Program-made: the position numbers and the translations under genes
Shown here: positions 23,800-61,423 of the stretch, one piece after another
Layout: every line of letters starts with the position of its first letter
Numbering within the stretch: position 1 is the stretch's first letter
Notes under the pieces: model-generated
The model's database searches: none
Told to the model about the DNA's origin: nothing
What the model saw: the letters and a program-made list of their open reading frames with translations, nothing else
DNA from: Marinicella sp.
GTDB taxonomy: Bacteria; Pseudomonadota; Gammaproteobacteria; Xanthomonadales; Marinicellaceae
Assembly: GCA_965230295.1 (NCBI GenBank)
Contig: OZ246001.1
Span: 224,001-288,000, forward strand
Length of the DNA: 64,000 nucleotides
Reading direction: 5' to 3'

Positions 23800-24038
23800 A
23801 AAGGAATGTTCTTGGGGCTCCATTCTGGTTCATGGTCTGACAGGTCTTCATATTTGCTGCGCAAATAAACCGACCTTTACAGACTATTGTCTGAGCAGTT
23901 GCTTCGCACTGCATGTCTGTTTCAGACAAAAGTGAAAGCGTCCACTGCGAACATAACTTGCTACCTCGGGCTCTTCACCTCTGATTCGCAAAGCTCACCA
24001 ACCGGCTCTGCGGGTCAAGCTGCTCAGCAGCTTTCCTA
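23800..24038 (-). mobile_element. MITE-like element, short copy A (~240 bp)
   Basis: Reverse complement is colinear with 24787-25339, including ~115 identical nt; short terminal repeats AGGAAAG...CATTCCT; non-coding and hairpin-rich. Confidence 0.8.
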
Positions 24039-24704: not shown

Positions 24705-24786
24705 ACTCCAAAATCAAAGTGATTTTGTTATTAAGACCAAACTTGATTGGTTCTGAAGTCAGCCAGTCATGAATCAATGCCTTCCG

Positions 24787-25339
24787 TAGGAAAGCTGCTG
24801 AGCAGCTTGACCCGCCGAGCCGGTTAGGCAGTGAGTGGAATAAAGGTGGTTTTGCGAAGCAAAGAAACCTTTATGCAATGAGCGATAAGCCGTGAGCTAT
24901 TGATGTTGCGGCCGCTATCGCTCCTTGCTATCGCGGCAGACCTACATCCATGTAGGCCAATCAGAGGCGAAGAGAATAGCCAATGAGCATATGGCGATTT
25001 GACGAAGTCAAGAAGCCTTATGTGAATGGCGTTATAGCACAGGCAATGAAAGTTGGGCGGTTTTATCGAAGATAAAGAAGCCCGATTTGAATGCCGCAGT
25101 GCGTGCGAGGTAGCAAGTCATGTTCGCCGGTTAGGAAATGATTCGTTACGATTTTGCCAATGGCAAAGAAGTAACGGATGAATGCCGTAAACCGTGGTCG
25201 TTTTCACTTTTGTCTGAAACAGACATGCAGTGCGAAGCAACTGCTCAGACAATAGTCTGTAAAGGTCGGTTTATTTGCGCAGCAAATATGAAGACCTGTC
25301 AGACCATGAACCAGAATGAAGCCCAAAGAACATTCCTTT
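24787..25339 (+). mobile_element. MITE-like element, expanded copy B with internal hairpin modules
   Basis: Same backbone as copy A with extra blocks at 24826-24891, 24899-24958, 24975-25105 and 25128-25193. Confidence 0.8.
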
Positions 25340-27007: not shown

Positions 27008-27020
27008 GTTACACCTTTCT

Positions 27021-27049
27021 CCAGAATGAAGCCCCAAGAACATTCCTTT
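27021..27049 (+). mobile_element. Isolated terminal fragment of the A/B MITE family
   Basis: CCAGAATGAAGCCCCAAGAACATTCCTTT matches the end of copy B (25311-25339). Confidence 0.75.
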
Positions 27050-27370: not shown

Positions 27371-27447
27371 TGGTCGGAGCGAGAGGATTTGAACCTCCGA
27401 CCCCCACAACCCCATTGTGGTGCGCTACCAAGCTGCGCTACGCTCCG
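27371..27447 (-). tRNA. tRNA-Pro(GGG)
   Basis: CGGAGCGTAGCGCAGCTTGGTAGCGCACCACAAT-GGG-GTTGTGGGGGTCGGAGGTTCAAATCCTCTCGCTCCGACCA; usual position after ihfA-merR. Confidence 0.97.
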
Positions 27448-36768: not shown

Positions 36769-36939
36769 GTTCACTGAGCCCTTCGACAGGCTCAGGATTG
36801 GCTCAAATCGAAGTGAACCTGTGAACTGCAATCATCACGTTCACTGAGCGTAGTCGAAGTGAACTTTCTGATGTATATCGAGTAAAAATGAAGCAGGCTT
36901 CGACTCCAGCCAGCCCTGAGTCAGTCGAAGGGCTCAGCC
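36769..36939. repeat. REP cluster with nested REP-in-REP units
   Basis: Nested unit 36769-36818, simple unit 36839-36864, nested unit 36896-36939. Confidence 0.85.
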
Positions 36940-42489: not shown

Positions 42490-43095
42490 ATGAAAAATTT
42501 TAAATTAAAACCTGTCAATGCAGCCATTGCAGCAGCCGTAACAGTCGTTGGAGCTGGTGCTTTAATGAGTGGCACGGATAACCCATTTGGTCAAACAGAT
42601 TTGAGCGATGGTTACCAAAATGCTGATGGTCGCATTGCTAAAGCCGATGGGTCTGGAGAAGGCAAATGCGGTGAAGGTAAATGTGGCGGCGACGATAAAA
42701 AAGCCGAAGGCAAGTGCGGTGAAGGCAAATGCGGTGGCGACAAAAAAGCCGAAGGCAAATGTGGTGAAGGCAAATGCGGCGGCGACAAAAAAGGCAAAAA
42801 AGCCGAAGGCAAATGCGGTGAAGGCAAATGCGGCGGCGACAAAAAAGGCAAAAAAGCCGAAGGCAAATGCGGTGAAGGCAAATGCGGTGGCGATAAAAAA
42901 GGCAAAAAAGCCGAAGGCAAATGCGGTGAAGGCAAATGCGGCGGCGACAAAAAAGCCGAAGGCAAGTGCGGTGAAGGCAAATGCGGCGGCGACAAGAAAG
43001 CCGAAGGCAAGTGCGGTGAAGGCAAATGCGGCGGTGATAAAAAAGCCGACAAAGCCGAAGGTAAATGCGGCGAAGGTAAATGCGGCGGCCAATAA
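42490..43095 (+). CDS. hvfA: HvfA-family (oxazolin/bufferin-like) RiPP precursor with 9 x EGKCGEGKCGG
   Basis: Signal-like N-terminus, NPF..LSDGY leader motif, 18 EGKCG units; upstream of the DUF692 gene. Confidence 0.9.
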   Translation: MKNFKLKPVNAAIAAAVTVVGAGALMSGTDNPFGQTDLSDGYQNADGRIAKADGSGEGKCGEGKCGGDDKKAEGKCGEGKCGGDKKAEGKCGEGKCGGDKKGKKAEGKCGEGKCGGDKKGKKAEGKCGEGKCGGDKKGKKAEGKCGEGKCGGDKKAEGKCGEGKCGGDKKAEGKCGEGKCGGDKKADKAEGKCGEGKCGGQ

Positions 43096-43109
43096 CTGGA
43101 TAAACTGAA

Positions 43110-59537: not shown

Positions 59538-59727
59538 GGTGTTGACTGCCGTGTTCGAGGTATATAAGCATATGCCTTGGCCCTAATTAATATTTACAGG
59601 AATTTTTATCGGCTTGTCAGTGTGCATGCTCACCTTGTAGTGAGAAGCCTTAGACAGTAGAGGAATTTCCGCCTTGTACCTTTGGTACCAAGGACGCCAG
59701 TATACAACGGCACAAGTGGTCAACATC
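59538..59727 (+). ncRNA. ssrS: 6S RNA
   Basis: ~190 nt between zapA and ygfA; terminal pairing GGTGTTGACTGCCGTGT / ACAACGGCACAAGTGGTCAACATC. Confidence 0.88.
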
Positions 59728-61003: not shown

Positions 61004-61423
61004 TGTCATCCTGAGCGAGTAACGCGAGTCGAAGGACCTCCCAAAAACCCGGCTGTGTTTTCATACTTAAAGGTGACCCAAAGAAATTAACCAGATTAAG
61101 GGGATTCCTCCACTCACTTCGTTCGGTCGGAATGACCACAGAGTCAAGGCTTTTAAATCTTCAGTTTGATTGAGTTCTTATATAACTTTTGATATCGCGC
61201 ACCTGGATACCGGCCTTCGCCGGTATGACGGTTGTATGTCATCCTGAGCAAGCAATGCGAAAACTTTTCTAACCTACACTCCAGCAATTACTGTACTGCC
61301 CTTGAGGTCAGCCGCTGGCTGAGCGGAGTCGAAGCCAGTAAAAGTTTAATTGCTGACATAATGACCAATAACTGTTCACTTAGACTCCAGCCTGTCCTGA
61401 GCCAGTCGAAGGGCTCAGTGAAC
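61004..61423. repeat. Mixed REP cluster (CGTC/TGTC-tagged and GCTGAGCGGAGTCGAAG types)
   Basis: TGTCATCCTGAGCG..GAAGGA (61004), ..GGAATGAC (~61136), GGATACCGGCCTTCGCCGGTATGACG (61205-61230), 61317-61336, nested unit 61374-61423. Confidence 0.85.

Follow-up and report, generated by a model that had tools for sequence, protein, structure and literature searches.

A modular, structured, non-coding mobile element of Marinicella and the hairpins in the slots of its core

Within the genome of a Marinicella sp. (assembly GCA_965230295.1), a 64,000-nt stretch of contig OZ246001.1 (positions 224,001 to 288,000, called the window here) carries two copies, A and B, of a non-coding repeat, and the longer copy B contains blocks of about 65 nt that are lacking in copy A and fold into hairpins. 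The locus raises two questions: what kind of element this repeat is, and what the hairpins are within it. The first-pass annotation regarded the repeat as a MITE (miniature inverted-repeat transposable element) and the hairpins as a class of tiny single-stranded DNA (ssDNA) elements, recognized by structure, that insert into or excise from this host by way of an enzyme, possibly of the HUH type. According to the analysis of this genome (a single contig of 4.008 Mb with 44% G+C, hereafter the home genome) and of its relatives, the host is a real mobile, modular, non-coding element, as judged by its empty sites, copy number, and architectures. The reading preferred here, to which slightly less than an even chance is given, is that it belongs to a lineage-restricted family of small, non-coding, non-autonomous mobile elements that act as ssDNA, with the hairpins as optional helices of their fold.

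Copy B is a complete element of 550 nt (window 24789-25338, + strand) that runs from GGAAAG to CCTT, ends that were set by aligning 11 long copies and by pairing left with right ends. Copy A (23801-24036, - strand) is 236 nt long and comprises the core plus a right-hand module of 87 nt. Direct reading of the sequence bears out the positions of the extra blocks that had been annotated in copy B (24826-24891, 24975-25105, and 25128-25193), as well as their net gains of 65, 129, and 65 nt. The total gain, however, is 314 and not 259 nt, as a fifth block at 24898-24955 (net +55 nt) had gone unlisted; once it is counted, 65 + 55 + 129 + 65 nt equals the difference between 550 and 236.

Whole elements are present or absent between near-identical strains, with exact ends, without inverted repeats, and without target duplication. 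The best holder of this stretch, a near-identical strain represented by run X1, provides a contig of 7552 nt in which position 23800 is joined to 24040 (three other bases between, 0 mismatches in 450 flank bases) and a contig of 570 nt in which 24781 is joined to 25339 (3 mismatches in 526 flank bases); most other contig joints represent cross-mapping of paralogous copies and were disregarded. These two contigs are the exact empty sites of copies A and B, bounded by GGAAAG and CCTT and devoid of duplicated target bases. Copy A is absent in two further genomes of the genus, G006 and G003, where its flanking genes lie 387 and 454 nt closer together. Terminal inverted repeats are lacking, as the left end GGAAAGCTG and the right end ACATTCCTT share only a 3-4-nt complement, and no target-site duplication was found either in the two empty-site contigs or as a shared repeat in the flanks of 60 copies. 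A C stands at position -4 of the 5' flank in 46/60 copies of the home genome and in 19/26 from other species; the three positions that follow (-3 to -1) vary and are A/T-rich, and the 3' flank is only A/T-rich. For copy B this target-side C is position 24785 (+ strand), four bases 5' of the element's first base, and it is also found in the empty-site contig. Taken with the element's own CCTT end, the flank C would allow both cut sites to be written as C-N-N-N followed by the cut. Structure at the target does not stand out, as reconstituted empty sites have a mean folding energy of -8.2 kcal/mol vs. -9.2 for random intergenic DNA (p = 0.21). The element is mobile now or was so until recently, by a route other than the classical one.

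Through blastn with copy B, pieces of the element are detected at 97 loci of the home genome, and left/right end pairing delimits 60 complete copies of 151-635 nt. Several lengths recur (151 nt in 13 copies, 238 in 7, 358 in 4, 422 in 3, and 635 in 7), and many others occur singly. A multiple alignment of these 60 copies gives 28 architectures by gap pattern, and scoring by coordinates gives 24 patterns of module occupancy. All four combinations of presence and absence are found in 20 of the 28 module pairs, so the modules assort independently, as the first-pass annotation had supposed, and the family is not confined to two fixed forms, the outcome that would have spoken for deletion of helices from one ancestral element. 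The minimal element is 149 nt long, and all other sequence resides in five slots of this core. Four solitary, near-perfect palindromes of 23-37 bp lie at about 902120, 1199639, 2221880, and 2341476 of the home genome; each is the element's left hairpin extended by right-end bases, and they may be minimal elements or the footprints of end-to-end deletions. At another locus (L055, G002:C2), two elements abut tail to tail in inverted orientation, the 3' flank being the reverse complement of the right end.

The family is concentrated in one genus. A covariance model built from home-genome copies detects the core in 20 of 24 genomes of the genus, in numbers from 0 to 83 (home genome 83, G034 75, G032 61, G031 34, and 0 in G003, G018, G013, and G010), and nearly all full-length core matches are 148-151 nt long across species. 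In a sample of 81 genomes of the order, a core match occurs in 8, including 5/5 of those sampled from this genus; outside the genus, that sample contains one genome of another genus of the family with 2 weak matches. G027, from another family of the same order, has 11 copies of 150-151 nt (e.g., L148-L150) with many compensatory changes (best E-value 1e-12). These copies could be of old ancestry, could have come by horizontal transfer, or could reflect contamination, which is put at 2% for this genome (completeness 89%). When species-representative genomes were scanned with the left end, nothing was found beyond a Marinicella sp. metagenome-assembled genome, and the 550-nt copy B has no match in plasmid and phage collections. 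The eight loci of low-copy genomes have no flanking similarity, and hence no shared master locus. Among the papers listed by literature searches on Marinicella repeats and on mosaic or modular repeats, no description of the family was found, and the latter search brought up BOX alone as a relevant case.

What selection acts on as a unit is the fold of a single DNA strand: a 149-nt core with seven helices and paired ends. From 16 home-genome copies, RNAalifold derives these seven helices, including a 3-bp helix that joins the ends and a long-range helix from the middle to the right end. In an alignment of 29 distinct sequences from 19 genomes, which was fitted to the covariance model, standard pairs fill 94.1% of the cells, a share that falls to 37-45% once partners are displaced by 1-3 columns, and both sides have changed at 32 of 46 pairs; the observed values were reached by 0/500 shuffles. 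Matching helices arise de novo from an unfitted MAFFT alignment (22/40 pairs compensated) of 21 of the 31 matched sequences, from which two diverged home-genome copies, exact duplicates, and several matches that were weak or of irregular length had been left out. In copy B (+ strand throughout), the left subterminal hairpin, core helix 2, spans 24792-24808 and has 7 bp and a 3-nt loop, with compensatory changes at 7/7 pairs across the genus. A purine-rich conserved segment (24956-24974), almost invariant in A1, A2, and A4, contributes the 3' arms of core helices 3-5. The core segment 25106-25127 pairs through its 3' part with the right end to form the long-range helix 6, which has compensatory changes at 5/6 pairs and is found de novo by RNAalifold on the unfitted alignment. 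The right end (25314-25338, with CCTT as its final four bases) pairs with 25120-25125 in helix 6 and with the first three bases of the element in helix 1. Among 1291 cells, 111 hold G.T and 17 hold A.C, and two G.U positions are almost invariant in the core, indicating that the + strand of the element is the folding strand.

This strand is not placed at random with respect to replication. GC skew puts the origin of the home genome near 1.71 Mb and the terminus near 3.82 Mb, and of the 60 copies, 44 have their folding strand on the lagging and 16 on the leading strand (binomial p = 4e-4). The bias is 10:2 where the neighboring genes are on the lagging strand, 16:5 where they are on the leading strand, and 13:5 where they converge, and sense and antisense placement are about equal (15 vs. 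18). In G032, where 20 of the listed copies were taken with 5 kb of flank on each side, the GC skew of the flanks assigns the folding strand to the C-rich strand in 17/20 copies (p = 0.003), with a split of 15:1 where the absolute skew exceeds 0.03. A replication-linked asymmetry at the level of DNA, which counts in favor of the first-pass interpretation, is present in both genomes. Since the asymmetry follows replication and not transcription, it points to the DNA itself.

A possible, on balance unlikely, alternative is that the fold is that of an RNA. The copies would then be genes or modules for a structured non-coding RNA (for example, a stable small RNA, a guide-RNA-like scaffold, or a ribozyme) that were multiplied as DNA, and expansion segments of this RNA would be what the hairpins represent. 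In keeping with it are a seven-helix fold with a closing helix and a long-range helix, covariation that is strong along the entire element, the excess of G.T over A.C together with the conserved G.U positions, purine-rich internal loops, a core length held at 148-151 nt across species, and z-scores of -5.9 to -6.6 when the complete element is folded as RNA, as are optional helices at fixed slots, which many large RNAs have. The orientation data argue the other way: placement tracks replication, and 16/21 copies between co-directional leading-strand genes are antisense to them. The fold begins at the first base of the element, so a promoter would need to reside in the variable flank, and a consensus scan yields 6 promoters vs. 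5.0 in shuffled sequence and 2 terminators vs. 1.8. Rfam has no match on the element at gathering thresholds; at E-values up to 10, only snoR14 (at the end of copy A) and Plastid-psbA-2 (inside copy B) overlap it, both far below threshold and chance-like. A conserved locus is missing from the low-copy genomes, and the home genome lacks a reverse transcriptase (no RVT_1 match) that could copy an RNA into DNA. Finally, by a count made on the sequence and its fold, 8 of about 10 hairpin loops in copy B have 3 nt, a loop size that RNA seldom shows and that characterizes stable mini-hairpins of DNA.

Only a small probability attaches to the idea that no dedicated mobility is involved and that the copies are relics whose spread and remodeling are owed only to general recombination, gene conversion, and replication slippage, with the strand bias reflecting only a faster loss of copies whose stable hairpins fall on the lagging-strand template. 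This would agree with the failure to find an enzyme in the families searched, with the lack of identical copies, with deletions and one duplication at short repeats, and with an orientation as expected for survival of hairpin-forming DNA, for which the closest parallel is in the attC arrays of integrons as treated in passages of PMC5371416. On the other hand, an insertion process is needed to explain 83 copies in unrelated intergenic locations whose ends are exact and whose flank keeps a conserved base; copy number varies from 0 to 83 among species; exact empty sites exist; and empty sites, when reconstituted, are no more structured than random intergenic DNA, with flanks that lack homology.

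With mobility of ssDNA preferred for the element as a whole, the second question concerns the hairpins. In copy B (+ strand), unit 1 occupies slot 1 (24826-24891; net +65 nt), which lies within the 5' arm of a core helix and is filled by covarying sequences in five other species. Slot 2, the 3-nt loop of a core hairpin with tandem G.A mismatches, is replaced by the module at 24898-24955 (net +55 nt), and the same loop holds a homologous 48-nt module in G002, G001, and G014. Units 2 and 3 stand in tandem in slot 3 (24975-25040 and 25041-25105; together net +129 nt), after the conserved purine-rich stretch, where G034 and G014 carry modules with other stems. Unit 4 fills slot 4 (25128-25193; net +65 nt), before the 3' domain, and a different module of about 100 nt takes this slot in other copies. 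Slot 5 lies in the last hairpin. The right-hand 87-nt module (25227-25313), present in copy A too and missing from 19/60 copies, carries three small hairpins, one of which is of the G(G/A)T...GAA type.

The architecture ascribed to all four units in the first-pass annotation holds on reading: the outer stem has 8-9 bp and is followed by G(G/A)T and then by a T-rich inner stem of 5-6 bp, which closes on a loop of 3 nt, after which the arms return with GAA between them. The loop is GAA closed by C-G in 3/4 units and AAT in the fourth. The stems had been said to covary fully, and their pairing does hold except for one T.T mismatch in the outer stem of unit 2, in which 8/9 positions are paired. 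Folding energies of units 1 to 4 as DNA are -8.9, -9.7, -9.4, and -9.5 kcal/mol on the + strand vs. -7.7, -7.6, -7.0, and -8.4 on the - strand; as RNA, they are -17.6, -21.1, -23.6, and -22.8 vs. -14.2, -16.6, -14.9, and -16.9 kcal/mol. The + strand is therefore the more stable in 4/4 units for either nucleic acid, and the hairpins do constitute a class defined by structure, flexible in sequence, and folding on one strand. DNA mini-hairpins of the GCGAAGC type are exceptionally stable. A strict structural scan of the whole genome returned 48 matches (27 + 21) with 22 distinct sequences, compared with 0 + 0 in the reversed genome and 1 + 1 in the genome shuffled in 500-nt blocks, placing the architecture above chance.

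The class also occurs in host contexts other than the element, as had been anticipated. Two diverged subfamilies in the home genome bear this hairpin type. A second structured repeat family at 1890322-1890591 of the home genome (L098 1279-1548) consists of 2.4 tandem units of 112 nt, each with one hairpin of the G(G/A)T...GAA type and one tandem-G.A hairpin like that of the element core; tandem arrays resembling it, with periods of 106-169 nt, are found in G008, G015, and G016. About five solitary hairpins of the class lie in intergenic DNA of the home genome with unique flanks. A model built on 19 distinct units has matches in 23/24 genomes of the genus, including 10 in G018, 4 in G010, and 2 in G013, all three of which have no core element.

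These contexts bring in the proposal of the first-pass annotation, that the hairpins of about 65 nt are themselves tiny mobile elements recognized by shape, inserting and excising as ssDNA in this host repeat and elsewhere; it is judged improbable here. In its favor, the common modules are self-contained with clean boundaries at the base, they assort independently, and one hairpin type appears in at least 4 slots and in other repeat families, in addition to the solitary hairpins and the core-less genomes just described. In each indel of the common kind (lacking in 6-58 copies), precisely one self-contained hairpin is gone, base included, and the junction has microhomology of 0-2 nt, for which simple slippage is no explanation. 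The history of the slots, however, argues against independent movement. No case of an identical unit at a new site was found. Slot 1 in G034, G001, G002, G031, and G032 contains hairpins of like plan with different, covarying stems, and length steps of +48 and +65-68 nt recur across species; the same slots with covarying hairpins in different species indicate that the modules are old and heritable, and not recent arrivals. The seven copies of 635 nt sit at different loci and differ at 12-43 positions, which implies that composite copies spread as wholes. In a relaxed scan, 172 matches (111 in repeated contexts, 61 with unique flanks, most of these in open reading frames) face 43 in the control, so that the 61 are not clearly above it and are mostly noise. 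No integron-type integrase above cut-off was found in the genome, and the core motif order at the base of unit 4 is the reverse of that in attC.

Those recent events that can be read are recombination between units. Within slot 1 of the home genome, inner and outer stems occur in differing combinations, evidence of exchange between units. Rare indels (in 1-4 copies) are deletions of 54-148 nt with junctions in motifs common to units and microhomology of 6-10 nt, sometimes leaving chimeric, mismatched hairpins, and are due to unequal recombination or slippage. Among the common indels, the 51-nt block of slot 2 is read from the junction sequences as lying between imperfect direct repeats of about 17 nt. 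The best reading is that the hairpins behave as old optional helices reshuffled by recombination, and not as independent mini-transposons. The clean module boundaries may keep the idea of independent insertion alive, and nothing found requires it.

If the element moves as ssDNA, an enzyme would act on it in trans, and the home genome was searched for one. Its one Y1 (HUH) gene (187 aa; 1669262-1669950, L013 1250-1950) is flanked by a different, shorter hairpin repeat, one decamer of which is found 41 times in the genome, and it looks like a RAYT with REPs of its own. The HUH enzyme suggested by the first-pass annotation thus receives no backing, as the single Y1 gene has different hairpin repeats of its own and Y1 is not co-distributed with the element; as a mobilizer, the RAYT is ruled out by the flanks of its gene and by its distribution in the genus. 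A Y2 search was uninformative because its control was silent. The home genome has no multicopy protein genes and hence no insertion sequence (IS) elements. It has one resolvase (3724525-3724947) and several tyrosine recombinases of the Xer-like or island type, none with a link to the element; a genomic island is probably marked by this resolvase together with three adjacent tyrosine-recombinase-like frames at 3777434-3780145, of which one is interrupted by a TAG stop. No left/right end pair encloses a gene within 30 kb, as an autonomous copy would, and no recombinase recurs next to copies (60 from the home genome and 48 from relatives). Four clusters of neighboring genes that were checked by Pfam (protein kinases, ABC ATPases, RND pumps, and metallopeptidases) are large paralogue families. 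Several small clusters of open reading frames of about 93-125 aa are present at home-genome loci only, the largest of them inside elements, and a frame of 100-130 aa with 11-16 recurrences in long copies was treated as spurious, as it leaves the element by differing lengths.

Several of these results weigh against a mobile element acting as ssDNA. A mobilizing enzyme was not found in the families searched: Y1 (PF01797) is absent from G034 (75 copies, 94% complete) and G032 (61 copies, 99% complete), and G003, G018, and G010, with 0 copies, do have Y1 genes; TnpB (Pfam zinc-ribbon domain family), IS110 DEDD, and Transposase_31 have no match in the home genome, and its best score for the integron integrase (TIGR02249), 74 bits, falls short of the cut-off of 265. 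A functional RNA would be expected to covary along its entire length, to conserve G.U positions, and to have a closing helix, as this element does, whereas a DNA transposon normally needs only its ends. Both empty sites come from contigs of one run. Identical copies are absent, and the smallest pairwise difference of 2 with medians of 3.6-6.7% excludes a very recent burst. The 0-2 nt of microhomology at common module indels also counts here. A mixed set of 26 copies from 16 genomes with 1.5-kb flanks has no skew bias (12:14), a test regarded as too noisy that nonetheless speaks against the bias.

The orientation itself is a further difficulty. In IS200/IS605, according to passages of PMC5027513, the active top strand is excised from and inserted into the lagging-strand template, whereas the better-folding strand of the present element, with its C-N3 site, is on the opposite strand. 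The feature would be matched only if the poorly folding complement were the active strand. Three readings of the opposite orientation remain: a mechanism unlike that of IS200/IS605, activity of the poorly folding complement, or survival in place of insertion. Survival has a published parallel in the orientation of attC arrays, since integron arrays in chromosomes reach a larger size if attC has its folding strand on the leading-strand template, an arrangement that limits excision, and cassettes of 60 bp were lost without integrase, probably by slippage (passages of PMC5371416).

Notwithstanding these points, the element acting as ssDNA is still preferred, and a mechanism can be proposed on this basis. 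A trans-acting enzyme could cut the element out and paste it as a single strand, cleaving 3' of C-N-N-N twice, once in the left flank and once where the element itself ends in CCTT. The logic would be the "peel and paste" of IS200/IS605, but executed by an enzyme other than the Y1 transposase of that family. The hairpins of about 65 nt would be self-contained optional helices at five fixed slots of the core, potentially old and heritable, with compensatory substitution preserving their pairing. Recombination between elements and unequal recombination at motifs common to units may then reshuffle them among copies. Modules were probably tolerated or multiplied because a self-folding hairpin leaves the fold of the core undisturbed. 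The strand bias might arise from the choice of strand at insertion or from better survival when the stable-folding strand is kept off the lagging-strand template. A bolder and rather doubtful version would make this a new class of single-strand element, in which the whole 149-nt body is a seven-helix DNA fold for a non-Y1 enzyme, insertion occurs 3' of C-N3 with the folded strand as the nascent lagging strand, and hairpin cassettes are gained and lost in a shape-specific manner at helix junctions. Were this true, cassette exchange would follow an attC-like principle without an integron.

Elsewhere in the window, an isolated right-end fragment (repeat family D4; 27008-27049, + strand) has no left end close by. 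The genes adjoining copies A and B are ordinary, encoding malate dehydrogenase and a DoxX-like protein. At 42658-43098 lies a long tandem repeat of coding type, with periods of 15, 39, 45, and 54 nt, whose in-frame translation would be a Gly/Cys/Lys-rich low-complexity protein. Two 40-nt copies of another short repeat with an internal inverted repeat, 90% alike, lie at 36898-36937 and 61379-61418, and the 6S RNA at 59540-59726 (+ strand; 87.6 bits) and a tRNA gene at 27374-27447 (- strand) are both ordinary.

Interspersed structured repeats such as REP, BOX, and ERIC are common, and most of them have neither a known mobilizing enzyme nor a known level, DNA or RNA, for the action of their fold. 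The present family is an unusually clean case: the complete genome has no IS elements and no reverse transcriptase, up to 83 copies, and exact empty sites, and the element combines a one-base target signature with fold covariation across more than 20 species and a strand bias that is reproduced in a second species. Because sequenced relatives carry anywhere from 0 to 83 copies, the enzyme could be found by phylogenetic profiling, and the optional hairpins of the element illustrate how a structured element can grow by the addition of self-contained helices.

The element resembles several known systems in part. Like classical MITEs, it is small, non-coding, present in many copies, and polymorphic in its insertions; unlike them, it has neither terminal inverted repeats nor target-site duplications. 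ERIC (or IRU) repeats are interspersed, structured repeats whose longer forms have internal blocks of about 70 bp at discrete sites, and ERIC itself is one long imperfect palindrome of enterobacteria; with ERIC, as with BOX, the comparison is one of architecture only. BOX repeats of Streptococcus pneumoniae and S. suis have the composition boxA-boxB(n)-boxC, to which further box modules are added, in which fixed ends enclose a variable number of self-folding internal modules (passages of PMC3049150). BOX and the element are alike in being interspersed, non-coding, highly base-paired, and composite, with self-folding internal modules that can be absent or repeated and with an uncertain enzyme in both. 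In that account, however, BOX is treated among MITE-type repeats with terminal inverted repeats and target duplications, its inverted repeats being likened to those of an IS element (PMC3049150), whereas the present element has neither inverted repeats nor duplications, and its modules are placed at five slots of a seven-helix core and not in one tandem array.

The likeness to IS200/IS605 derivatives lies in the lack of inverted repeats and of duplication, in subterminal hairpins, and, as far as the passages of PMC5027513 go, in a presumed insertion 3' of a short motif in the flank with a likeness to how the element itself terminates on the right, in strand specificity, and in an orientation linked to replication. 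The target may differ, being a fixed tetra- or pentanucleotide in IS200/IS605, whereas here a single base is conserved, the C at -4, followed by three variable, A/T-rich positions; a Y1 transposase is not co-distributed, and the whole body of the element, not the ends alone, is under structural selection. The REP/BIME and REPIN-RAYT systems comprise high-copy intergenic hairpin repeats in mosaics with a single-copy, domesticated Y1 gene (abstract of PMC3333891), and the home genome likewise has high-copy intergenic hairpin mosaics and a single-copy Y1 gene. The Y1 gene is flanked by the other, shorter hairpin, however, and the element measures at least 149 nt, is no simple palindrome, and occurs in genomes devoid of Y1.

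The attC sites of integrons have the core order RYYYAAC ... GTTRRRY at the base of their hairpins. The base of unit 4, the only unit compared, is 5'-GGTTAGG...CCTAACC-3', the reverse of that order, and the element has neither cassettes nor an integron integrase above cut-off in its genome; the motif order of unit 4 and the lack of integrase rule out identity with attC. The likeness that does exist is to hairpins of about 60 nt and upwards that are recognized by fold and not by sequence and have one active strand (passages of PMC5371416), as the units here are hairpins of about 65 nt defined by their fold, of which one strand folds. The element therefore fails the defining tests of classical MITEs, IS200/IS605 derivatives, REPIN-RAYT, and attC, and what it resembles is a structured interspersed bacterial repeat, close to BOX in its modularity and to IS200/IS605 derivatives in having neither inverted repeats nor target duplications.

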